NCBI RefSeq assembly: GCF_028641065.1
Contig: NC_073379.1
Span: forward strand, 56,978,001 to 57,042,000
Direction of reading: 5' to 3'
DNA: 64,000 nucleotides
Origin: Leucoraja erinacea
Taxonomy: Eukaryota
Part shown: positions 3,640-62,214 of the stretch, in pieces
Numbering within the stretch: position 1 is the first letter of the stretch
How the letters are laid out: every line of letters starts with the position of its first letter
Notes under the pieces: model-generated
What the model saw: only the letters and a program-made list of their open reading frames with translations
The model's database searches: none
Told to the model about the DNA's origin: nothing
Program-made: the position numbers and the translations under genes

Positions 3640-4930
3640 ATTGCCCTTGAGAAGATGGTAGAGCCAGATTCTTGCAGCTTTGTGATTCTTCCAGTGATGT
3701 TGATCTTGCTCCACTGTTGTGGAGGAAGCTCAAGTTTTCAGACCAAACAATGCTGATGGAGCAACAACATGCTTCCAATTCATAATAGCGTAAAAATTGG
3801 AGGGGACACGCAGAGGATCTTGTTACGCGTCTACTGCCCTCTTCTTTCTGGGCGCTGGAGGCCATGGATGTGGAAGACGCAGACTGAATAGTCCAGTAGA
3901 ATAACTGCAATTTCCACAGTAGATGTCATACACTACAACTGCTGTGTGAAGCTGGTGAAGCTAATTCATGCGTAGGGATGTGGATGAAGTGATAATCGTG
4001 CTGGCTGCTTTTTCTTGGATGGTGGCTTGATCAATGAACATCCCCATATCTGACCTTAAATCACTGATGAGGCAATGATTAGGCCTAGGGCATTGTCCAG
4101 AGGAGTTCCCACAGTGAACTCCTGGTTTTGAATGACTAACCTCCAACAATCACAATGTCTGCAAAGTCAGATGCCAAGCACTATCCCTCACTACTATTGT
4201 TTTCAGTTTTACTGGGCTGTTGATGCCAATATTGCCTTTTCTGGGACATAGCTCTCTCATCTGCATCTTGAGCAAGTCTGGTAGCGAATGCTTCTGTTGA
4301 ATAAGGGACGAGGTTGCAGACCGTGGTGATGTACTATTCTGTGGTAGCTGATGGTTCACGGCACCTGAAGGATGTCCAGTTTTGAGCTGTCAGATTGGTT
4401 CTGATTTACATCCATTTAGTATGATTGTACATGAAGCAGGGTGCCCTTGGGGCATAGTAGAACTTTGTGTGGTTTTTAGTTTTATCACTGCTGTCACAGA
4501 GAGACGCATCCACAACAGATGGATCAGAGAGGATAATGTGCGGTAAGTTTACCCGTTGTGCTAGGTCACTTTCTACCCGTCACACACTGGATCTGGCAGC
4601 GATGTCCTTCAGGGCTCATCTAGTCTTAGCAGTGGATGTTGAAGTCACCCCCACTCAGAGTACATTCTTGCTACTGTCAGTACTTAGAAGTGTTGTTTAA
4701 CATTGGCGCGCACTGATTCACCAGGTTAGACAGAAAGCAAGGTGATAATCAGAAGGAGATTTGAGCTGATACCATGAGAGGTTAAGAAGCTAAAGTCAAT
4801 ATTGAGGACAATATTCCAGGGCCTTGCCCACCCTCCTTCACACCACAGTGGAGGGTGAACACGAGACTGACAGAAATACAGGAGGTTACAGAGACAGAGA
4901 GGGACATTGAAGAATTATTTTCATCCAAGT
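3640..4930 (-). mobile_element. Old, heavily decayed CR1/L2-like LINE
   Basis: Frameshifted RT remnants around 4030-4130 (GVPQG...LGP-like, SDMGMFID) and IQEKAA in ORF 3961..4149. Confidence 0.5.
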
Positions 4931-6645
4931 ATGAGAATCTTAAATTGGAGAGATTAGTGGACTGGAAGCCAATGTAAGCCGGCAATTACACAGCTGAAGG
5001 GCTATCACTTAAAACATAAACAAAGCCCTATATTTTGTTTCACCATTGGATGGATAACCCACCTACAAACATGCAACATAATGAGTCCAGCTTAATGAAA
5101 GAGGGTCCTTGGGATATTTCTAAATTGAATGTTTGATCAAGGTGGGGAATAAAGCTAGAAAGTCCAACGCAGCAGTAATTGTGGCAAATCTTGGATCGCC
5201 ACCAGTGTGAAGTTGGCACAGTTAGAGGTAGCTACGTAAATATGTGTCCTCATGGCAGCAATAAAGAACTTTTAAGTGTACACTATCATTACAAATCAGC
5301 AGATCTGCAACTGAACAGCACTTGAATACTATGACTACTGCTGCAAATACATTAACCTGCAGTTCTACATGCAAATTGAGCGAATGCTTGGAGATAATAT
5401 AAAAGGGCGTTACACTGCAAACAAAATTATTTCTAGGAAGCTTAGAAAGTTGAACAGAATCATCTAAAGCCATTTTTTCCTCTATTTTTACTTATATTGC
5501 ATTTTTGTAATCTTTAACAGAGCCTTTAGCATTGTTGGGCTGAAGCTCACCTTAAGTGGTGATAACAAGCTCGCAAGATGATCTTGTAGGTCAGCATATT
5601 CTTTCAGACTCCAGTCGGTGCAAGGAATCCATTTCCAGTGCCACCGCTCAACCGCCACTGGTGGGCTCAGTATAGATATCCTGAGCTGAGGGGCTTATAC
5701 ACATTGTATCTAACCTTTCATCATTAAGCCACCATCCAGTGGAGCCCCAGACATTTGAATGGGGGCTACCAGGGTATCCTGCTTTCTTTGTTTCTTTATT
5801 TTATTTTATTTTATTTTATTTTGTAATAATGTTCTTCAGTTTCAGATGGTATCGAGGCCAAAGTAAATGTAATCTGCATAGAGGTACAAGAATACTTGAT
5901 GCTAATGTTTGGTGAAGAAGTGGTAAGGTTTTTCACTTGCAGTCCTACAATCCCATTGCATCTTGTCAAACCGGTACTTTTCCTGTAGACATATAGGTCT
6001 TGGCACAGACCTTTAACAAACGTACATATCACATGGCCGGAAAACAAAATAATGATGTTTAACCTTTTAGAAGTGCTGGTATGCTGTACTGCAGTGTAGT
6101 CACAAAAATAAGCCCAGGGTCAAGCCGTTCTAGTGCAGCTGCAGCATTGTGGAAAATTGCAAAGACCTTGTCCTGCCTGTGAAAGGTGACACATATTCCA
6201 CCCAAACCAGCCTTCTATCAATCGTCAGCACATCGCTATCAAGCTCTCACTTAAAAATAGCTTGTTTATGATACTCAGAGTGTGATCTTCTCTGGAACTG
6301 CATGACTCTAGATCTCACCCTGGACAAAGCTGCTGAATCCAGGGAAGATGCAAGTGTGAGTGCCCATGGCCTCATGCGACATACAAAAGAGTGTAGTCCC
6401 AAGGAACCCAAGTGAAAATGGAATAGGAAGCAAGAGGAAAACTCTTGCACAAAGGAAAGTAGTCAACAATCCCAGAATATTGCTTCAGATGTTTCTTCAG
6501 GGGAAGGGGAGGGGAAGGGTGTTTCTGGCTCAGCCATCTTGAACTGATTTATAACGTGGAATTATCAGTCCAAATACAAGCAGATAAAGAGAGAAATAAA
6601 AGCTAAATAAAAGTTCTCAATGCATAAGTACAATGTTGAATATTG

Positions 6646-7394
6646 CTGGGAAAGGGGGAGATGCAGCGAGACCTGGGTGTCATGGTACACCAGTCATTGA
6701 AGGTAGGCATGCAGGTGCAGCAGGCAGTAAAGAAAGTGAATGGTATGTTAGCTTTCATTGCAAAAGGATTTGAGTATAGGAGCAGAGAGGTTCTACTGCA
6801 GTTGTACAGGGTCTTGGTGAGACCACACCTGGAGTATTGCGTACAGTTTTGGTCTCCAAATCTGAGGAAGGACATTATTGCCATAGAGGGAGTGCAGAGA
6901 CGGTTCACCAGACTGATTCCTGGGATGTCAGGACTGTCTTATGAAGAAAGCCTGGATAGACTTGGTTTATACTCTCTAGAATTTAGAAGATTGAGAGGGG
7001 ATCTTATAGAAACTTACAAAATTCTTAAGCGGTTGGACAGGCTAGATGCAGGAAGATTGTTCCCGATGTTAGGGAAGTCCAGGACAAGGGGTCACAGCTT
7101 AAGGATAAAGGGGAAATCCTTTAAAACCGAGATGAGAAGAACTTTTTTCACGCAGAGAGTGGTGAATCTCTGGAACTCTCTGCCACAGAGGGTAGTTGAG
7201 GCCAGTTCATTGGCTATATTTAAGAGGGAGTTAGATGTGGCCCTTGTGGCTAAGGGGATCAGGGGGTATGGAGAGAAGGCAGGTACGGGGATACTGAGTT
7301 GGATGATCAGCCATGATCATATTGAATGGCGGTGCAGGCTCGAAGGGCCGAATGGCCTACTCCTGCACCTAATTTCTATGTTTCTATGTTTCTA
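6646..7394 (+). mobile_element. CR1 (HER1-like) LINE, 5'-truncated, (TTTCTATG)n tail
   Basis: ORF 6643..7395: QRDLGV...LYRVLVRPHLEYCVQFWSP...RRLRGDLIETYK. Confidence 0.95.
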
Positions 7395-9055
7395 AGATCC
7401 TTGGTTTGTTTTGTACTGTAATGTACAAGAACAGTAATTTCTGACTGAAGCCCATGATGCATATTAGAACAATAGACTAAAAAACTTTAGACCCATAAAT
7501 TTAGCAAAGATAAGGCATTTCACATTAGAGCCAACAACCTGGGGTGAAGTGACGTGAAAACAGCAAAGAAAAATAGTGCAGGAGATATATCCAGTAATTA
7601 AATGTATCAGGGCAGCATAGCCTAGGTGTCCGTTCAGGAACCAGTGCTGCAGCTGAACACATGCCCACAGCTGTGGACAACAAGGATAAAGAACAGGAAG
7701 TGTGAATGTCAGTATAATCACGGCCAGTGGGAAAAGGAGTCATTGTTGATATGGACAGTCAATTGGAGAAGTATATGTGTCCCAGATAGATGATCGGAGA
7801 AAATTATGGAGCCAGTGCAATTAGTGTAATGTGGAATAATGCAAATGAGTTTTGATATTCTGAGTATTTGTAGATGATCAGTGTGCCTCATGGATAAAGC
7901 TGAATGGTTGAGGGAGTTCAGTGTCTGTTTTGCCGTAAATGGTAAAATAAAACTCCTTTAAAAGTCATAAGAATTGCTATTTTTTTGCAACGACAATAGT
8001 AAGGTTATAAGAAGGTCAAAAGTCTACTGATTACAGCATTGTTTGGTTCCATTCACAATCCACATGTCTGCACTTGGCAGCATTCGAACTGAAAAGTCAC
8101 AAATAGCATTTTCAGCAGCATGAGCATCTGGCAGTGTGGAGAGAGTAGCTACCTCCCCCTGACAATCAGCAGTATTACTCCTGCTGATATCTCCTTCATC
8201 AACACCCTGGCAATCTTTCGGACTGGAAGATCATTTGGACCAGCACAAAAATATCATTTTAACCCACAGTGCTCTAATTCTGGGTACTCTATAGGTAGTG
8301 GTATATTTCTTCACAGTCTCTCTTGTATCTATAAAGGCACAAATCATGATAAAAAACTCTCCATCCACCCGATGAGTGTAGCTGCATCAACACCAGCATA
8401 GCTTTCTCAGGGTATATAAAATCAACCTGATCGACAGCCCATTCATCTATCACCTTAAACACCTGCTCCACTGGCAGCTGTTTACACATCTACAGGGTGC
8501 ACTGTCAAACTTTAGACAGCACTTCTCATAGGCATGACTTCTACTACCAAAGGCAAGGCTGCCAAGGATAGGGCATAAATAAACAGCATCACTTCCAAGC
8601 TTTTCTCCGAATTGTTACCATCGGCATTGGATATCTATCACTGTTCATTATCACTGGCCAAAACCTGCCACTCTATTCAGAGACTAGTGATCGATGGGGA
8701 TGGGTCACTTGTGAAGGACAGCTAACTCTGAGTGGCAAAAGCTATTCTTACCTGAGATATCATAATCCTAAGATTTCATCAAACATAATATCTACTTTCA
8801 GTACAATGCTGAGGGTACATTTCAGCATTTTTATTATGGTGTGACCCACATTCACCTGTTCTCTGAATGTGAAGATCCCACACTATTTAGTGGTTTGTCT
8901 TGTCCCAATGCCTTTGCAACAGATGACCCGACCATTCATGAAGCCGGCTGTTTGAGACGCCTTGCTCTATGAAACCTGCTTGCCAAACCTGCTCAGTGAA
9001 GAATGACTGCACCCATTCAAACTGTTGTATGTAAAAGAGTCATTTGAAAGGGGAA

Positions 9056-10818: not shown

Positions 10819-11000
10819 GTAGACAAAAGTGCTGGAGAAACTCAGCGGGTGCAGCAGCATATAAGGAGCAAAGGAAATAGGCAACGTTTCGGGCCGAAAC
10901 CCTTCTTCAGACTTATGACGCCTAGCCTCGCTGCCTCACCGGTAACTCTGTATATCTCCCCTTCCCCGATAAAAAATAAAATACAGTTCCTTCTTAAACA
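10819..11000 (-). mobile_element. PLE pLTR insertion (inverted piece plus a garbled forward 3' end)
   Basis: gtagacaaaagtgctggagaaactcagcggg...cttcagac is followed by the pLTR terminus cagttccttcttaaaca. Possible 10-bp flank repeat tcagtattca (10809-10818 / 11014-11023). Confidence 0.78.
10883..10910 (-). ncRNA. Minimal type I hammerhead ribozyme core (GUU site), sense to the SLC24A2 pre-mRNA
   Basis: CUGAAGA-A-GGGU[UUCG]GCCC-GAAACGUU. Conserved core with a palindromic ACGU stem III, as described for PLE hammerheads. Confidence 0.75.
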
Positions 11001-17481: not shown

Positions 17482-17703
17482 GAGATACAAGGAACAGTAG
17501 ATGCTGGTTTACAAAACAAGACACAAAGTGCTGGAGTAACTCAGCAGGTCAGGCAGCATCTCTGGAGAGCATGGATAGGTGACATTTCAGGTCAGGACTC
17601 ATCTCCAGATCAAGAAGGGTCCTGACTCGAAACATCATCTATCATGCTCTCCAGAGATGCTGCCTGACTTATTGAGTTACTATAGCACACTGTGTATATT
17701 ATT
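17482..17703. mobile_element. Fold-back PLE pLTR insertion
   Basis: Inverted arms at about 17521-17598 and 17619-17695. Decayed 11-bp flank repeat caataccattg / cagtgccattg. Confidence 0.82.
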
Positions 17704-20712: not shown

Positions 20713-21041
20713 TCCGTATGTACCTGTAGTTTATCAAGTTTTCAATTGCTGATCATTTTTAAACATATGTTCCAGGAATATCTTCAGAGCCAAAGTAGAA
20801 ACCATCACTCAACTATGCACTTTGTGGACAGTCTATGGCTGCCTGTGGAACACTCATAACTAAAGATGGAAAATATAAATCACAAACTGAGGGCTGTGGA
20901 AAATACTTGAAAGAAACTAAAGGAATTGCAAACGTTGCCACAATAAACCAACCATAATCTGGTAGAAAAAAATTACAACATTTGAAAAGTTCAGGGAATA
21001 CATTGAAATAACTCAAGAAAATCCAAGTTCTATTTACACTC

Positions 21042-21139
21042 TGGGTATGAAGATAGGTCTCGACCTGAAACGCCACCCATTCCTTCTCTCCAGGGATGCT
21101 GCCTATCCCGCTGAGTTACTCCAGCATTTTGTGTCTACC
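21042..21139 (+). mobile_element. 98-bp PLE mini-insertion with 14-bp TSD
   Basis: TTCTATTTACACTC at 21028-21041 and 21140-21153; decayed hammerhead core at the 5' end. Confidence 0.88.
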
Positions 21140-21849
21140 TTCTATTTACACTCAGCAATTAACAAGGCATGGAACAGACTGCCACCATCAAAGTGAGTGC
21201 TGAATGACCGAAGGATTTAAATAAAAACCTGCAGGAGTGACATCTGATTCATCCATGATTAAAAAGGTTCAAGCTTGAAACAAAAACAATAGGAGACAAT
21301 TATGACTGACTGACATCAGGACAAGCTCAGTGGGCTGATTATCCTATTATTCTTAATGCTGATATATTAAATAATAAATGATCTCCTTACATTATTTTTC
21401 ACTGTAAAAATATATATATATTTGGTCACAGAGAGGATTAATGGAAAGATCCATTCCCGAGAACAACCAAATTAATTTTAATATTTTCCTGCATGATGAA
21501 CATTGAGTGGAAATTTACCAGCCTCTAAAATTAGTTATTCCTTGGGGTACAAAGTAGATGGCAAAATGACATGCTAGTTTGTCAATTGCATCAATCACAA
21601 AATCATGCCCTGTTGCCTTAAAAAACCTCTTGTTTTGGAGACACAGTGCAGCTGCACTTTAATTTCACTTCACCGTACGTAGTTGTTCTTTCTCCGAGTG
21701 GTTCCTCAACAGGCTCTTAATTCCTTTTGCAACAAGTGGATTCAGCCCAGAAATGCCAGCAAGATATTGCCTTCCCATTTCTTAAACACCTTTCAATACT
21801 GAAAAAAGTGAGAAGGACAGATATTTTTCTTCCTGCAGTGTGATCAAGT

Positions 21850-22742: not shown

Positions 22743-23748
22743 AGGCAACCATGAATATTTTGCAAAGAAAGAGATAAAGCATACACCATGAAAGAGGTTG
22801 AACTGGGAAAGGGATCCTGGAGCCTTATTGGATTTAAATGCTCAAAATATCGAAGCATTGCACACCAGGCATTAGAAAAGCCAAAAGGACATCAGTCTCC
22901 ATTAACAAACTAAAAGACAGCACCTCTACCACAGTACCCATTTTTGACAGCTGCGAAACAACAGCTATTTAGTACCAAATGCAATACAAGAAAAGGTACA
23001 GTGCTAGTACTCAGTTTTGCAGTCCGGATTATTGGGAATAACGGAAAAACTAAGCAGGAATGGGAAGCAGAAGAAATTGGTGAGCATTTGCCCTTTAACT
23101 GAATGTTAAAACTTACTAATTAAATAGAAGGAAACGTCCACCCAGACCATGCCAGCTTTAGTTCTCCTCTAAATTTGCAAGGCTCAATGTTCAAGTAATA
23201 TATTTGTCAGGCTGAACGTTTAAGCAACATGTTGAATATGTTAATTAAGGAGTTAACATCCACTGGAGAGCCCTTCCTGAAATTGGGATGACCTAAGCAA
23301 GTTGGCAGGGGGCAGGAAGTGTTGCGAACTGGCTCCATGGCAGGTCTGAAGACCTTTAGATGTCTGCAGTGCTCACAGCAAATGAGGTCCACCAGGGAAC
23401 TATTGCCAGCAGCAGATCTTCATAATGTGATGATGATAGGCATCAGCGAGATGGGTATTGAGGGGCTACTGGGGATCAGCATGAGTAAAGGATGGTTTCT
23501 ACTCAGCAGGGCATGAGAACCCGTGAGAGCAACACATGTCCTCTTTCATCTTTTTGATAACTGTATGCTATCAATTCAGCAGATGGATTTGATTGTGGTT
23601 CTAACATCAAAATTAACCCACGGAAATGATTAAAGTTTAATTTCTAATGGGTTGCGAATGGAAATTAATTTCAATTTTGTTGTAGGTAGACAAAAATGTT
23701 GGAGAAACTCAGCGGGTGAGGCAGAATCTAAGGAGCAAAGGAATAGGC

Positions 23749-23776
23749 GACGTTTCGGGTCGAGACCCTTCTTCAG
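23749..23776 (-). ncRNA. Minimal type I hammerhead ribozyme core (GUC site), sense to the pre-mRNA
   Basis: CUGAAGA-A-GGGU[CUCG]ACCC-GAAACGUC directly 3' of the GIY-YIG ORF. Confidence 0.8.
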
Positions 23777-24594
23777 ACTGATGTGGGTGGGGGGCGGGAA
23801 CAAGAAAGGAAAAGGCGGAGACAGTGGGCTGTGGGAGAGCTGGGAAGGCGAAGGGAAGGAGAGGAGAAAGCAAGGACTACCTGAAATTGGAGGTCAATGT
23901 TCATACCGCTGGGGTGTAAACTACCCAAGCAAAATATGAGGTGCTGCTCCTCCAATTTGCGGTGGGACTCACTCTGGCCATGGAGGAGGCCCAGGACAGA
24001 AAGGTCAGATTCGGAATGGGAGGGGGAGTTGAAGTGTTGAGCCACCAGGAGATCAGGTTGGTTAGTGCGAACTGAGCGAAGGTGTTGGGCGAAGCGATCA
24101 CCAAGCCTGCGCTTGGTCTCACCGATGTAGAGCAGTTGACACCTAGAATCGCAGATGCAATAGTTGAGGTTGGAGGAGGTGCAGGTGAACCTCTGCCTCA
24201 CCTGGAAAGACGGCTTGGGTCCTTGGATGGAGTCGAGGGGGGAGGTAAAGCGACAAATGTAGCATTTCCTGCAGTTGCAAGGAAAGGTACCAGGGGATGG
24301 GGGGGGTTTGGGTTGGAAGGGACAAATTGACCAGGGAGTTACGGAGGTAATGGAAGGGGAGAAGATGGGAAGATGTGGCCAGTGGTGGTATCCCGTTCGA
24401 GGTGGCGAAAATGTCAGAGGATTATATGTTGTATGTGACGGCTGGTAGGGTGGAAGTTGTGGACAAGGGTGACTCTGTCCTTGTTACAAGTGAGGGGGAT
24501 GGGGAGTGCGATCGGAGCTACGGGATATAGAGGAGACCTTGGTGAGATCTATAGTCCAAGAGGGGAACCCCCCGTTCGCTGATGAATGAGGACA

Positions 24595-25020
24595 AGAAAG
24601 AGAATGGAGCGGCTGGGCTTGTACACTCTGGAGATTAGAAGGATGAGAGGGGATCTTATTGAAACATATAAGATTGTTAAGGGTTTGGACACGCTGGAGG
24701 CAGGAAACATGTTCCCGATGTTGGGGGAGTCCAGAACCAGGGGCCACAGTTTAAAAATAAGGGGTAAGCCATTTAGAACGGAGACGAGGAAACACTTTTT
24801 CTCACAGAGAGTTGTGAGTGTGTGGAATTCTCTGCCTCAGAGGCAGGTTCTCTGGATGCATTCAAGAGAGAGCTGGATAGGGCTCTTAAAGATAGTGGTC
24901 AGGGGATATAGGGGAAAAGGCAGGAATGGGGTACTGATTGGGGATGATCAACCATGATCACATTGAATGATGGTGCTGGCTCGAAGGGCTGAATGGCCTG
25001 CACCTATTGTCTATTGTCTA
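24595..25020 (+). mobile_element. CR1 fragment nested in the PLE
   Basis: ORF 24586..24957. Removing it restores the PLE codons RASE-MSSF. Confidence 0.93.
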
Positions 25021-26202
25021 TCTCAGATGCCCTGGTTTGGAACACCTCATCCTGGGTGCAGATGTGGCATAGACAGAGGAATTGGGAGTCGGGGATAGAG
25101 ACCTTACAGGAAGCAGGGTGGGAAGAAGTATAGTTCAGAGAGCCATGGGAGTTGGTGGGTTCAGTTTCCACCATCAGCAGTTTATATTCATACAATTATA
25201 TCGAAATAACATGACAAATGTCACAGACTAAATCATTTTCTATATTATAACAAGCCTTGCCTAGGTGCTACAAGAAAGCTGGACTGGACAAAATTAAACG
25301 TTTACTGTACCACAAACCTTATCTATGGACAAGGAAGGAAATTACAATGTGGAAAATCAATTAGTTCGTGGGATTTAACAAGTTATCAGGATATAACTCC
25401 ACATCTACCACTACCAGCAAGGCTGACTATGCAATTAAATTGTTAAAGTATTCAGGTAGTCAATTTAGCAGTTGAAAAGCAATGAACATTTGGTATTATT
25501 AGGTATTGACATTTCCTAGTCTTGTTGCTTATTTCTGCACAAATTGTCTGTATATTAACGGAGTGAACAAAAGGTAACTTGAGTGACATCAAGGGAATTA
25601 CTCAAAGTATCCTTAATTTCAATACAACTAATAAAGTAAGTATTACTTATCTGCAGTGTACATTAAATATTACTAAGCATATGGCAAGAAACAATATGTG
25701 AATGTATTTACAGTTGTGCAGTCACTTAGGTCTTGCACAATAAATTTGCTCAAGTGTTTTCAAAGCAGCTTGCTTGAACAAAAGAGGTTATTTTGGAACC
25801 ACATCTTCTAAATACTTCAGTTTATGAACAGGAAACTCGATGAACTGAAAAGCAGCATGAAATGGGCAGCACATTGCAATGTACACCTGAAGTTAAAGGT
25901 CTGATGTAAATTGGGTCTTCCCTCATCAGTTTTTGAAAAGTCAATGGATTCATGTAGAAATAGTTGTTGCCGAACATAAAAGTCGCCAAACACACATCAC
26001 TACAGAATGGATATGAATAACACAATTGCCAATTTTGAATCAAAATGTGGAAGATTTTACTATAAGAGCATCTAAACAGAAAGACCAACTGACAATTAAA
26101 TAGAAAAATGTTAATTCATGTCATCACAGTTAAACAGGAAATCCAGGCAAAATGCATGGTCTACTCATTAAAATTAGTACGCACAAATATTGTAATTGTA
26201 CA

Positions 26203-29268: not shown

Positions 29269-29713
29269 CAAAAGATTGATGAAAATAATTTGTGGCAGAA
29301 TTGGCTAAGCAAAAATAACTGTTTGCACTTTTAATTTTATAGGCTTTTTGTCAACATATGATAGTGAGTTATTTTAACTCATGAATTTAGCCATTTTATT
29401 TTGTAATTGTTTCTCGCATGTTTACGTAGAAAAGAGACTGTCAAACTAGATTAGATCTTGCTACATAAAATAAAAAGGCATTTAGATTCTACATTTTGCT
29501 TTTAAATTGTGCAGGGCCGGAAAAGAAAATGGAACAGCATCTTCCAAGACACCAACTTTGCAACAATTTGAGAAAGTTTCATAAGTAATCAATCATTAAA
29601 ATGGTATTTAACGAGAGGCAAGGATTGAAGTTCATGAAAATGTTAGAATTCAAATTGGTTTAACACTACATTGTGATTTATTGCCCAATGTTTAGAAAAC
29701 AATGAATCCTATG

Positions 29714-29774
29714 AAAATAATGAACTCCATAGATGGTGGCTCACCCACTGAGTTTCCCCAGCATTTTTGTCTAC
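29714..29774 (+). mobile_element. About 60-bp PLE pLTR mini-insertion with 14-bp TSD
   Basis: CAATGAATCCTATG at 29700-29713 and 29775-29788 flanks ctccatagatg...gcatttttgtctac. Confidence 0.82.
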
Positions 29775-30019
29775 CAATGAATCCTATGGATTGCCTTTGG
29801 GAGGAAGAAATGCAATTCCCACAAGGAACTAGCAGTCTTATGGAACTTAATAGTGGAATTTAATAGTTTAAATAATGCACTGTGATGGAATATTTACATA
29901 AGCCAAAATAGATTGACTGGGGAGGAGGACTGTGACTGACTAAAGCTTTTGAAGGGAAGAGTTGTATTGACTGATGAATTTAATGATACGTTCATCCTTT
30001 CTGGTCTACACACTTCAGC

Positions 30020-46509: not shown

Positions 46510-46606
46510 CTATTAGCTAAATTTGAAAGAGATCTGCAGTGTTCATTAAGCGATAGTGTGGTTCCAATCAGATTCAAATCATGAACTAGGTAGTTCATAT
46601 CTTAAT

Positions 46607-46715
46607 CAGACAATTTCATCAGTCTGAAGAAGGGTTTCGGCCCGAAACGTCGCCTATTTCCTTCGCTCCATAGATGCTGCTGCACCCGCTGTTTCTCCAG
46701 CAATTTTGTGTACCA
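46607..46715 (+). mobile_element. 109-bp hammerhead-carrying PLE mini-insertion with 15-bp TSD
   Basis: AGTTCATATCTTAAT at 46592-46606 and 46716-46730. Confidence 0.9.
46624..46651 (+). ncRNA. Minimal type I hammerhead ribozyme core (GUC site), antisense to the gene
   Basis: CUGAAGA-A-GGGU[UUCG]GCCC-GAAACGUC. Confidence 0.8.
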
Positions 46716-46941
46716 AGTTCATATCTTAATGCAGTCAGTCATTCTCAGCACACAACAATACACGTTTATCAATAAAGTTCATGCAAGCGTGTGTTCTGTA
46801 TTCAGATTTCTTGCAACCAGCAAAAATTTAAGACAATTTGGAACAATTACACCACATGACACAGGGTGGACAGCCAAGACACATGAATGACTAGAAACCA
46901 CAACAACATCACCACGAATAACTAGTTACAATTGCTCCTAC

Positions 46942-49900: not shown

Positions 49901-51236
49901 AAATCTGAAATACAAGTTTGATTGAAGAAGCTGCACAATCTTCATGCAATAGATCCATGGATGATCTTGCTACATTAATGCAAATTCTTTCTTAAGCACA
50001 GTTTTAAATTTTAGAAAAAAAGTTAAATGAAAGCTTTGTTTGTGAATATTACAGTTCTCTCTAAGGGTATTTCTTCAGTCCACTGCCAGAGTTCCACATC
50101 ATTTTGTCTCTTGTGAATACTTTTTAGCTAAGTTGCCAAAGTAAACTTTACTAAATATTGTTTGAGAAGCAATCTGAACTAATTGTGCCATTGTGCCATT
50201 TTATTGAGGACAGACACAACTTCAATGTTCAAGTATGAAATAACAACTTCTTGTCAGGAAAAAAAAAAGTCACCAGTACTAGATGCATCTAAATTTGAAT
50301 GTAATCCCACTCAATTAATTACTCAGACCCAATAATCCCCACATTTAGATCACATTTGTTTATTGTCATATCTACCAGGAAGCAATGAAATTCCCATTTC
50401 TCATGAAGTTCATAGAGTATTCGGTAATGACAGATACAAAAATAAATACAGATAATGAATGCAAATCAGTAGAATGGTATAAAGATTGTTGGGCGAACTG
50501 AAATAGTAAAAATAAATTCTAAACTGCAATAACAGAATAACCAAAGGATTAGTATCACCTGATAGGTAGATTGTTTGCATATACTGTACATAGATAAGAA
50601 ACTATTTGAGAAAACTGATGAAATGTTTTAGATGTACTGAATATTCTGGTCAGAGTGTTTCTGATGTATTTGATCATTGTGGCTAAAATATGGGCCGTAG
50701 ATAAACTCGATTCATTGACATATGCCGGTAGCAAGTTTGTACCCAAACCAATCACAGGCTATACTTCTGCCTTTTGCTAAATTCAGATTCACATTGCAGG
50801 AAGGAACAGTCATACCCTACAGAAACAAGCTCTGCAGCCCACCACATCCATTCCGACCATCGTACCCATGTATAGTATTTCCATTGATCATCACTTACTC
50901 CATAGCCGTCTACGCTTTGTCTAGATATTTTTAAAAGCTATGTTTCCCTGTTTCCACCACCCAATCAGGCTTTGCATTCCAGTTTTCAATTGCCCTTTGA
51001 CTGAAAAACCTCTACTCAGAACTTTTTACTGTTTACCTGAAAGAAACCCTCCAGTTGTCGACATGATTGCCTTGCGACAAAGTTTCCCATTATATATCCT
51101 AGAATGAATCTAAATTGAGTTGAAATGTGCTCCTAAAACATAATAATTCCAATCAAACTCATCTCCAAACCCCAGGACCTAGGCATCAGCACGCCCCCTT
51201 GTGACTGAATCCTCATAGACCACAATCAGTGAGGAG

Positions 51237-51513
51237 CCTTCTGTGGCAGAGAATTCCACAGATTCACCACACAGAGAGTGGTGAATCTGTGGAATTATCT
51301 GCCACAGAAGGTAGTTGAGGCCAGTTCATTGGCTATATTTAAGAGGGAGTTAGATATGGCCCTTGTGGCTAAAGGGATCAGGGGGTATGGAGAGAAGGCA
51401 GGTACAGGATACTGAATTGGATGATCAACCATGATCATATTGAATGGCGGTGCAGGCTCGAAGGGCCGAATGGCCTACTCGTGCACCTATTTTCTATGTT
51501 TCTATGTTTCTAT
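51237..51513 (+). mobile_element. CR1 3' fragment with 5' inverted duplication, nested in a Rex1 fragment (about 51190-51790)
   Basis: 34-bp inverted repeat at 51237-51270 / 51278-51311. The Rex1 sequence (RPQSVR...TGALQ.CVLSPL...YTHDC) continues across the insert. Confidence 0.87.
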
Positions 51514-59151: not shown

Positions 59152-60446
59152 TTTTAAAGAAAAGATAAATTCCATGAATAATTATATATTTCTATCTGGG
59201 GTCTTATAGTCATCTCATGACATTCAGTCTGAATTTATTCTGCAAGATCAGCATGATGCCTTGGCAGCATTGTAGGCAAGACAGTCAAGAAACTATTCTG
59301 TATCCCTCGGGTCCATTGCTGCCAACGGGCCTCAGAGCAACTGATTACATTACGGAAACCAGCCCACTTTTTGAAAAGGAGCCTCGCCTTTCATAATTGA
59401 TTTTCTTAAATCTTAGAGTGAATGAAGGACTTTGAGGTTCCTGATGCAAACTAAATGCCAGGACTCTGTTGCAAATGGAAGCAATGCTCACGTTAAATCT
59501 TCCAACCTTGGGAATTGAGATGGGGGTTTCCTTGGGCACCAGCATTCCTTTGGTGTCAAAGGAAATTCATGGCAAGAATTCACACAATGCTGCCAGTGTA
59601 GGCACTAAAATTAAAGCAGAAACATAGACCAATATTCTACTGCGGTAACTGATATATTTTAATCCTTTGCTTTAGCTCTGGCAACAGCTGGCTCTTTAAA
59701 TTAGATAAAGGGCACATTTTTAAAGTAACCAGTGCTAAGAAAAGCAGGCTACTTAAGACCCAGGGTCAGTCTGTCAAGGTGACCAGAATTTCGTTTCATT
59801 GTAAAGCACGACCCAGATTTAGCAGCATCAAGCATTAGCCAATTAGTGTGATGCTTGCATTTCCAAACAGAGGTCACCGACTGTAGAGCAGTGGCGCATA
59901 AAGGAAACACGCACTTATTGTTTAATGGTAAGCTCTGAATGCATTCTGGTTGTGTACCAGCTGCATGCTGCTTTGAGAAACCCCATGAAAACACTGACAA
60001 ATATCACTTTTGGGCTGCAGTTCTGGGCCAGCATTGACCTGGGGATTGGTGCCACACCCTTGAGGGTTGGTGCCACAGCAGTTATTACATTGATGGATAC
60101 ATTTTCACTCTCTCAATGCAGCAGGACCACTCTGCATATTGCATATCTCTAACCAGAATATAGTATCCAGAACCAGAGTACAGAATATAGTTCTCATCGT
60201 TGTAGTGTAACATTTCCACAGAAGATGTCTAATGATCATAATGAGGTAGGTTGGAGAATGAGGACTGTACCCTGCCTTATGGAAGGACCATTCAGAAGTA
60301 AGCATTCAGGAGAGAAGAAAGTGTTTCTGATACTGGTGGTATGCACTTTCAAACTTTTGTACCTTCTGCCTGATGGGAGCGATGAGTAAAATAAAAGACC
60401 TGGTGAGAAAGCTCCTTCATTATGTTGGCTGCTTATGTCCTTGATT

Positions 60447-60983
60447 ATAGACACAAAATGTGGGAGTAACTCAGCGGGTCAGGCAGCATCTCTGGAGGAA
60501 AGGAATAGGTGACGTTTCGGGTCAAGACCCTTCAGACTGAGAATCAGAGGAGAGGGAAACTAGAGATATGAAAAGGTACAAAGAACAAATGAATGAGAGC
60601 AGGAGGAATCACAGAATGTGTGCAGAGAGAGGGTTGTTGCGGAACTCTTGTCGGAGAGAGGGGAACTTCTTCAAAGTAGGCATACCTTGAGGAGAAGGTA
60701 GACAAAACTGCTGGAGAAACTCAGAGGGTGAGGCAGCATCTATGGAGCGAAGGAAATAGGCAACGTTTTGGGCCGAAACCCTTCCCGAAACGTTGTCTAT
60801 TTCCTTCGCTCCATAGATGCTGCCTCACCCGCTGAGTTTCCCCAGCATTTTTGTCTACCTTCGATTTTCCAGCATCTGCAGTTCCTTCTTAAACAAATAC
60901 CTTGAGGAGATGTTGCAGGGGAGCTTACAAATGTGTAGGAAGGAACTGCAGATGCTGGTTTACACCGAAGATAGACACAAAAT
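60447..60983 (-). mobile_element. PLE partial-tandem pLTR copy hosting a younger fold-back pLTR (60696-60896, 14-bp TSD)
   Basis: atagacacaaaat is repeated at both ends; ATACCTTGAGGAGA at 60682-60695 and 60897-60910. Confidence 0.88.
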
Positions 60984-62214
60984 CAGTTCTTATGTTGGCT
61001 GACGTTTGGATGTTTCTTTAACTAGAAAGGAGCATTCTTACTGATTACACGAAGCTTTGAAATGTTGCTTTCAAATTTGATGAACAGATTTCCTCTCCGT
61101 GTGGGCAAATAGATGAGAATCCAGGCGTGCCCTGGCATTGTTGGCACTGGACTCAATCATGTTTTTCCAACCAGTGAACTTTCCATCAATGCTAGAAGGA
61201 AATTCATTCTAAGTCTATCCCACATGGATATCTGTTTATTAATGTCATGCAAACTAATTAAGCGCAACACATTTCCCATCATTAGCAACCTAGCCACGCT
61301 GGGAAGAAGGAACAGCTGCGCATTTTGGGCAAGTGGCTTTACCTCAGCTCTCAGAAAGGGCTTAAAATTTTAATCCATTGTTGTAACTACCAAGGTTGGC
61401 AGGGTAAAATAATGTTCAATATTGCTCCAAGGCCATCTAATTTCACTCGCTGATTGGCACCCAGCAACAGCAATTAAAGTCTTACCCTTCCATTATCCAT
61501 GTGAAGCAGGTGCTCCAAAAGCACAACAAGTTAATGATGAAGAAAGGTTAAAGCTCCCTTCACTGGAGCAGAGATATTGAAGGTAATTTCAGGTTCCCAA
61601 AATGTCTTTAAGATATTGTAATGAGTCAACTTGAACACACATCAAGATACAACACATATTTACTACTGTACTAACAAACACTATAATTGGCTAGTATGAA
61701 ATAGCCAATCTACAGATGTTAACTGCACAAGAAACTAAAGATTGTTTTCAAAAGTTGGTAAATTGACACAAATATACATCCCGATAATATTATTTGAAAA
61801 GGGGAAGGAAATGTTCACACCAAATGTTATAAGTTTGTGGAATGCTTTGGTGTGGTAGCTTTTGAGTCAACCAGCACAACATAAATGGGATTGGAATTGT
61901 ACTTCTATCTGGAAAAAGATAGAGGTAACATGAAAGAGTACAGAGAAAGGTTGGGTAAATCCTGCAACACTAGCATAGTGGACAAATTCACAGGCCTGAC
62001 CTAAAGCAATGAGGACAAGCCCAAATCCTAGCAAAGCAGGGTCATTAAATTGAGTTATTAAATAATGTGAAACAATGAAAAGAAAGCTAATATGAATTAA
62101 CAGTAATCAAAATCGAATAAGTGTAAATGCCGGTCAAGCAGCACCTTTTGGGAAGAAAAAAGCGTATTAATGGTTTAAGTCAAGGACCCTTCATCAGAAC
62201 ACGACATCACACAG

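Follow-up and report, generated by a model that had tools for sequence, protein, structure and literature searches.

Short hammerhead-bearing inserts in the genome of Leucoraja erinacea are most likely by-products of a Penelope-like element

The window analysed here, a stretch of 64,000 nucleotides of Leucoraja erinacea (NC_073379.1, positions 56,978,001 to 57,042,000 of the forward strand), contains three short inserts that share a ‘...tacc’ end point and lie between long direct repeats, all on the plus strand. The first one (46607-46715, 109 bp) is flanked by perfect 15-bp target site duplications (TSDs) at 46592..46606 and 46716..46730. It consists of 10 non-element bases at the 5' junction (46607..46616), where the parent element has a C-rich 3' UTR, of the terminal arm of a Penelope-like element (PLE) with a 2-nt deletion (46617..46714), and of one extra base. 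The arm includes a TCAGT motif (46619-46623) and a minimal type I hammerhead core (46624..46651) composed of CUGAAGA, stem II and GAAAC-GUC according to the motif definition in PMC4209133, with predicted cleavage after 46651 and a stem I of only 2 bp. All arm positions below are numbered from this predicted cut, and the arm of the 109-bp insert runs from about -35 to +65, which we call site S. The second insert (21042-21139, 98 bp, within 21028..21153) also ends at S but belongs to an older subfamily and has 14-bp TSDs at 21028-21041 and 21140-21153; as C3 and U16.1 of its core are altered, its ribozyme is predicted to be inactive. The third one (29714-29774, 61 bp, within 29700..29788, 14-bp TSDs at 29700-29713 and 29775-29788) ends at S as well and lacks the core, as it begins about 14 nt 3' of the cut; the last C of its ‘tacc’ is shared with the TSD. 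The 5' ends thus lie at about -35, -33 (second insert) and +14, and 10–11 non-element bases are present at the 5' junction of the first and third inserts. A preliminary description made from the sequence alone had reported the 109-bp insert as a hammerhead core plus pLTR tail between perfect repeats, with two equivalents of which the latter has no core, and its coordinates, TSDs and common end point were all reproduced. Its treatment of the three as one homogeneous unit was not, as the first two are only 77% identical, the 5' ends are unlike and the core at 21042 is mutated.

Merging of all arm matches gave 15 in the window, and several of them are more complex than the three inserts. A two-armed fold-back insert at 60682..60910, with its S end on the minus and its L end (the second 3' end, see below) on the plus strand, is flanked by 14-bp TSDs (60682-60695 and 60897-60910). 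This young fold-back is inserted within the 5' UTR part of an ORF-less unit on the minus strand (60447..60983) of about 309 nt with a 13-nt terminal redundancy, in which tail and 5' UTR are joined to the final ~95 nt of the 3' UTR, followed by ribozyme and S end, and which has the appearance of a single turn of a short template, either circular or tandem. A 12-bp flanking repeat (60420-60431 and 60990-61001) is found 15 and 6 nt away from the ends of this unit. An S-ended, 5'-truncated PLE copy with a decayed GIY-YIG coding region lies at 23685..25150 on the minus strand (upstream limit approximate) and is split by a different abundant repeat nested at 24600-25010 (minus strand). Further pieces are an older fold-back arm pair (17519..17699) and an S-ended arm on the minus strand (10819..10917) with its 5' end at about -31, for which no flanking repeat of at least 11 nt was found. 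The short near-perfect hairpin at 51236-51312 is unrelated to the PLE arms and gives weak miRNA-model matches on both strands.

The best 30 matches of the 109-mer in the genome have the same 3' end as it does, and upstream most of them run into a C-rich 3' UTR that they have in common and a GIY-YIG coding region. We fetched 20 coding copies selected for long open frames, and in 17 of them the hammerhead directly follows the ORF and the copy ends at or near S or L; the 2.7-kb coding copies terminate either at the ‘...tacc’ point (S) or ~35 nt beyond it (L). The longest frame, in copy L143, encodes 838 aa with matches to RVT_1 (E 5e-6) and GIY-YIG (E 9e-4), both below the Pfam cut-offs, and structure comparison of the ORF found no matching solved structure. 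Upstream of its GIY-YIG motif the L143 frame shows C-X4-C-X2-C, in agreement with the CX2-5CxxC motif between RT and EN that marks the Neptune and Nematis clades (PMC8557442), and vertebrates are described to contain Neptune and Poseidon PLEs (bioRxiv 10.64898/2026.07.22.740005). Full pLTR-ORF-pLTR copies were found in L293 (hammerheads at 2807 and 6455) and L294 (2748 and 6549), the unit between the hammerheads being 3.65–3.8 kb long. Hence the element has what defines an EN+ PLE, namely a single ORF with RT and C-terminal GIY-YIG and pLTR direct repeats with a minimal hammerhead, together with the optional 30–40-bp tail and inverted 5'-truncated copy. We are highly confident that the inserts are stubs of a PLE of this Neptune type, the clade being suggested by the linker motif. 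The proposal of a Neptune RT/GIY-YIG source agrees with this parent, while its mobilisation of a retrozyme-like family is unsupported. In L293 (2810-3904) the PLE reading frame is open from just after the ribozyme CUGA across the whole pLTR and tail, with ~50 open codons ahead of the first ATG; a splice-donor-like AAGGTATG overlaps this ATG. A random sample of 1 Mb, taken as 36 blocks from large contigs, contained 379 arms and gives a rough extrapolation of ~8 x 10^5 arms in 2.19 Gb; together with the 15 matches in the window this is in line with the high abundance, about a dozen copies in 64 kb, proposed before.

The 3' ends of 321 arms from the 1-Mb sample and the window are bimodal, with S at +62 to +68 and L at +95 to +103, in young and older subfamilies alike. 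As coding copies and stubs end at the same points, the fixed 3' end belongs to the whole element. The flanking direct repeats are far above chance level: a repeat score of at least 12 was reached in 58 of 323 arms, compared with 0–9 when the right flanks were swapped between loci (2–9 in five shuffles). In order to follow the ends of two-armed inserts we used an anchored set that is blind to the 5' end and is made of the first matches in genome order, 58 of 917 to an S-ended pattern and 58 of 3564 to an L-spanning pattern; TSDs of 10–19 bp, with a mode of 14–15, were present in 77 of these 116 arms. Among the TSD-flanked two-armed inverted inserts of this set, 16 that were S-anchored had L at the far end and 25 that were L-anchored had S, and as two inserts had been found from both ends this corresponds to 39 of 39 distinct S/L pairs. 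In the random sample, where 64 TSD-flanked arms were examined, 19 of 19 two-armed inserts were such pairs, so that all 58 TSD-flanked two-armed inserts combine one S end with one L end. Left out of this count were one S/S, one S/L and one L/S insert, all without TSD, and four internal inversions. A one-sided tail is known qualitatively (PMC8557442, PMC3846280), and our literature searches, with few subscription journals covered, found neither a published count of the S/L pairing nor a 5' pile-up upstream of the ribozyme.

According to in vitro work on a PLE from anole, RT begins at two internal sites that mark the limits of the genomic tail, nicking and extension occur on both strands, the template is mainly uncleaved RNA, and the reaction depends on RNA located downstream of these sites (PMC11167929). 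S and L match the positions of these two start sites and by analogy may have the same role in the skate. Two-site priming at S and L is a probable explanation of the ends, and the two nicks would prime at different sites, because TSD-flanked two-armed inserts always have one S and one L. Since the two arms overlap in template sequence, they are equally compatible with one RNA molecule or with two. The fold-back arms of L187, L190, L281, L291 and L299 overlap by 13–16 nt across stem II and turn inside the near-palindromic ribozyme stem. Alignment folding of 54 tails yielded no consensus structure, and therefore no hairpin is claimed at the RT start; folding z-scores were -0.7 for the stub and 0.0 for the 5' 217 nt.

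We then looked at the 5' ends, again for the 116 young anchored arms chosen by their 3' end only. Of these, 33 begin at +51 to -22, 51 at -24 to -37, a single one at -38 to -60 and 31 further upstream, up to -1892. With inverted arms included, 65 of 153 young 5' ends are located at -24 to -37 and 17 at -17 to -23 within or beside stem II. There is no pile-up at the ribozyme cut, as only 8 of the 153 lie at -2 to +10, a density equal to that at -16 to -3. Exact genome-wide counts of apparent starts are 230 at -29, 475 at -30, 399 at -31 and 219 at -32, with 1322 matches intact to -38, and the -30/-31 peak falls on the TCAGT motif. Plain random 5' truncation, in which short copies would merely be the commonest, would explain why 5' ends span the whole range from +51 to -1892. 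Yet the stop rate is 0.060 per nt in this 14-nt peak and 0.002–0.004 elsewhere, that is 15–30x higher than on either side, and loose ends of RNA reads accumulate at the same place. Random truncation is therefore refuted for the young subfamily by the 5'-end distribution, and we regard it as an extremely improbable explanation overall. Instead of ends spread along full-length PLEs, we see two fixed 3' ends common to coding copies and stubs and one preferred 5' stop, in line with the stereotyped truncations with a preferred priming site that the preliminary description had offered as one of its two readings.

The same boundaries were visible in four raw RNA runs, which come from related or identical organisms, possibly not this species, and from poly(A), oligo-dT and single-cell libraries that are blind to ~100-nt or circular RNA. 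In these runs 76–96% of the aligned reads continue into unlike sequence, and their loose ends accumulate at -31/-30, S and L. This fits read-through of genomic stubs, and the three boundaries thus recur in independent material. No position where many molecules begin was listed in the four runs.

What causes the stop near -31 is a matter of two main explanations, both of which accept the PLE origin. D. virilis Penelope has an internal promoter with initiator (PMC2377424) and the Adineta pLTR carries an Inr-like TCACT (PMC3846280), and because of these two cases we prefer a run-off at the RNA 5' end, with TCAGT as the initiator-like motif of the transcription start, giving this cause about an even chance. 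The full-length copy L293 begins at -30, but the 20 5'-UTR-bearing copies among 64 exact matches count against a transcription start: only two of them begin near -31 (-28/-33), 14 begin between -15 and +65, three extend past -150 and one has no upstream arm. An extra G as left by a cap does not stand out clearly either: counted by eye, a G was found at -32 in 41 of the first 100 cases against a background of 0.28–0.36 and at -31 in 49 of 100 against 0.32–0.37, A>G changes contributing to the latter. The missing pile-up at -31 in 5'-UTR-bearing copies would also agree with a roadblock or a splice-related boundary, as the same place consists of a polypyrimidine tract plus CAG, which could bind proteins or act as a splice acceptor. 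A pyrimidine-rich tract and CAGT before the core are indeed conserved in all subfamilies, in D. virilis the end of the intron falls on the 5' side of helix I (PMC4209133), and the count profile from -29 to -32 is equally expected from MAG-type exon ends. Against this stands that the junction to the TSD is direct or formed by microhomology, without exon-like sequence, in 16 of 25 simple stubs, that several of the extra stretches (6–49 bases) in the other nine are local duplications, that no back-splice-type junction occurs in the genomic sequences examined and that just one of 153 ends lies inside the tract. The 16 TSD-abutting stubs argue against splicing to host exons and not against a roadblock, and in total we consider a roadblock or splice boundary possible but doubtful.

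A further proposal concerns the long copies, which could derive from RNA that is cut by the ribozyme and re-ligated into a circle, or could involve strand transfer between the pLTRs, with stubs made from linear RNA and both routes coexisting. Long arms pass seamlessly over the cut site and -31, the start of six of the 20 5'-UTR-bearing copies lies close to S, at +51 to +65, as predicted for one full turn, the 309-nt unit in the window equals one turn plus 13 nt, and circular templates have been proposed in PMC4209133. However, tandem genomic masters such as L294 would yield seamless read-through RNA without any circle, there is no excess of ends at the cut, and ribozyme mutants left insertion in vitro unchanged (PMC11167929), so that this route appears rather unlikely to us.

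The other reading in the preliminary description was a retrozyme-like non-autonomous family. A separate retrozyme- or SINE-like family of ~100 nt, with its own short RNA and served by the PLE enzyme in trans, would explain the discrete size class, and there are indeed ORF-less units of ~175–310 nt in which ribozyme, tail and 5' UTR are retained (the window unit at 60447-60983 with its 13-nt redundancy, L266, L168, the neighbouring unit within L292, L316, L324 and L325). In L316, L324, L325, L266 and L168 the 5' UTR at +135 to +215 is joined back to -28 to -155, each junction being different. A pattern for one such junction class had 2 matches genome-wide, and such unlike junctions are more readily explained by sporadic short templates or by template jumps than by amplification of a family; ORF-less templates seem to be a minority. 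Over 88 nt, the 51 short and the 31 long copies of the young subfamily differ in no column (all p>0.7, with limited power), and the mean distances within short, within long and between the groups are 3.8, 3.7 and 3.7 of 88. With alleles common to both size classes, there is no sign of a separate family. The 198 cores in the 1-Mb sample form no tandem array, rare arrays elsewhere in the genome being possible, and the few core spacings below 400 nt are all unlike, save two 39-nt duplications. Moreover, S-ended stubs would be unable to template L ends. Stem II is 87–95% paired with a U-A/U-G change between subfamilies, 74 of 202 cores are intact, and stem I has 2 bp with a third pair formed in 21% of the 202 cores; an Rfam scan of the window reported no hammerhead family and only hairpin matches under the gathering scores. 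Without private alleles, tandem arrays in the 1 Mb or an end excess at the cut, and with a minimal ribozyme, a separate family is very unlikely. Membership in the non-LTR retrozymes is not supported, as neither tandem 150–450-bp units nor a canonical ribozyme nor an own lineage was found, and the stubs are also unsupported as a new RNA element.

We therefore return to the PLE itself and consider it likely that the inserts are terminal pieces of an autonomous EN+ element, arising anew at each insertion by an internal RT start and a stop ~31 nt upstream of the cut. The parent with its RT and GIY-YIG ORF, 3.65–3.8 kb between hammerheads, has the two fixed 3' ends S (+65) and L (about +98 to +101). 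Two nicks about 14–15 bp apart, as suggested by the TSD lengths and PMC11167929, would open the target, and one would prime S and the other L, as a protein dimer would allow. Copies cross the ribozyme site with no end excess there, and for this reason the template would be uncleaved or re-ligated. After the strong stop at -24 to -37 (peak -30/-31), which a transcription start at TCAGT may or may not set, the cDNA end could join the other nick by microhomology to give stubs of 90–130 bp, or join the other cDNA to give fold-backs. Because stubs are devoid of the sequence downstream of L which the anole protein requires in vitro, they are predicted to be dead ends. Most likely, the stubs are dead by-products of a known element rather than a self-spreading ribozyme family.

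Insertions of EN+ PLEs with pLTR, inverted 5'-truncated copy and 30–40-bp tail have been described (PMC8557442, PMC3846280), but most skate insertions comprise only the terminal 60–230 bp, the tail is one-sided without exception in the 58 TSD-flanked cases, the 5' ends cluster, and the TSDs have a mode of 14–15 bp compared with 8–10 bp in Adineta. PAc from Anolis (PMC11167929) is a further counterpart: its tail, too, is delimited by two internal RT start sites located downstream of the hammerhead, nicking and extension occur on both strands, the RNA is used without cleavage and a dimer is predicted. PAc belongs to the Poseidon clade and was studied in vitro, whereas the skate element is known from genomic evidence alone, and the text consulted of that account is silent on TSDs, on inverted insertions and on a 5' stop. 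The skate motif also resembles the solitary minimal hammerheads of metazoans, mostly single motifs ‘probably related to truncated PLEs’ (PMC4209133), in its minimal type I core, the unpaired base before stem II and a palindromic CG at 15.2-16.2. It differs by a stem I of 2 instead of 4–5 bp, and our extrapolated ~8 x 10^5 arms far exceed the 4,000–9,000 motifs of that study, which used a stricter method of counting. Metazoan non-LTR retrozymes share the type I hammerhead, the missing ORF, the relation to pLTRs and the long TSDs (PMC7229834, bioRxiv 10.64898/2026.07.22.740005). They are however described as tandem repeats of 150–450 bp with, in PMC7229834 (2020), canonical ribozymes and abundant circRNA, the canonical type I ribozyme having a helix I of about 6 bp and loop contacts, while the stubs are single or head-to-head, shorter than one unit and have the minimal core.

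Two retroelement processes offer an analogy, and no more than that. In the twin priming of L1 a second nick primes an inverted segment, and retroviral minus-strand strong-stop DNA is a short cDNA whose synthesis starts internally, close to the 5' end of the RNA. In contrast to these, the stub arms overlap in the template and start at two fixed sites, and neither a tRNA primer nor an RNase H domain was found. Only tentatively do we suggest that the stubs might be the PLE counterpart of strong-stop DNA, in which a dimer would prime both nicks near the RNA 5' end, the cDNAs would run off at the transcription start, and a circle or a strand transfer onto the second pLTR would be required for long copies to arise. 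If this were true, the S/L pairing without exceptions would be the trace left in the genome by an obligatory two-site, two-strand priming, and tail, inverted copy and pLTR would be explained by one mechanism.

In summary, the layout of PLE tail, inverted copy and pLTR was already known and the value of the skate inserts is a modest mechanistic clue. How these parts are formed is a question for which PMC8557442 calls for mechanistic work, and the later steps are left untested in PMC11167929. The stubs, which are most likely dead, inflate hammerhead and retrozyme counts in such genomes. At the same time, hundreds of thousands of short TSD-flanked arms provide base-level read-outs of paired start sites and of one stop, with none at the cut, and these can be converted into direct in vitro predictions for the mechanism of PLEs.
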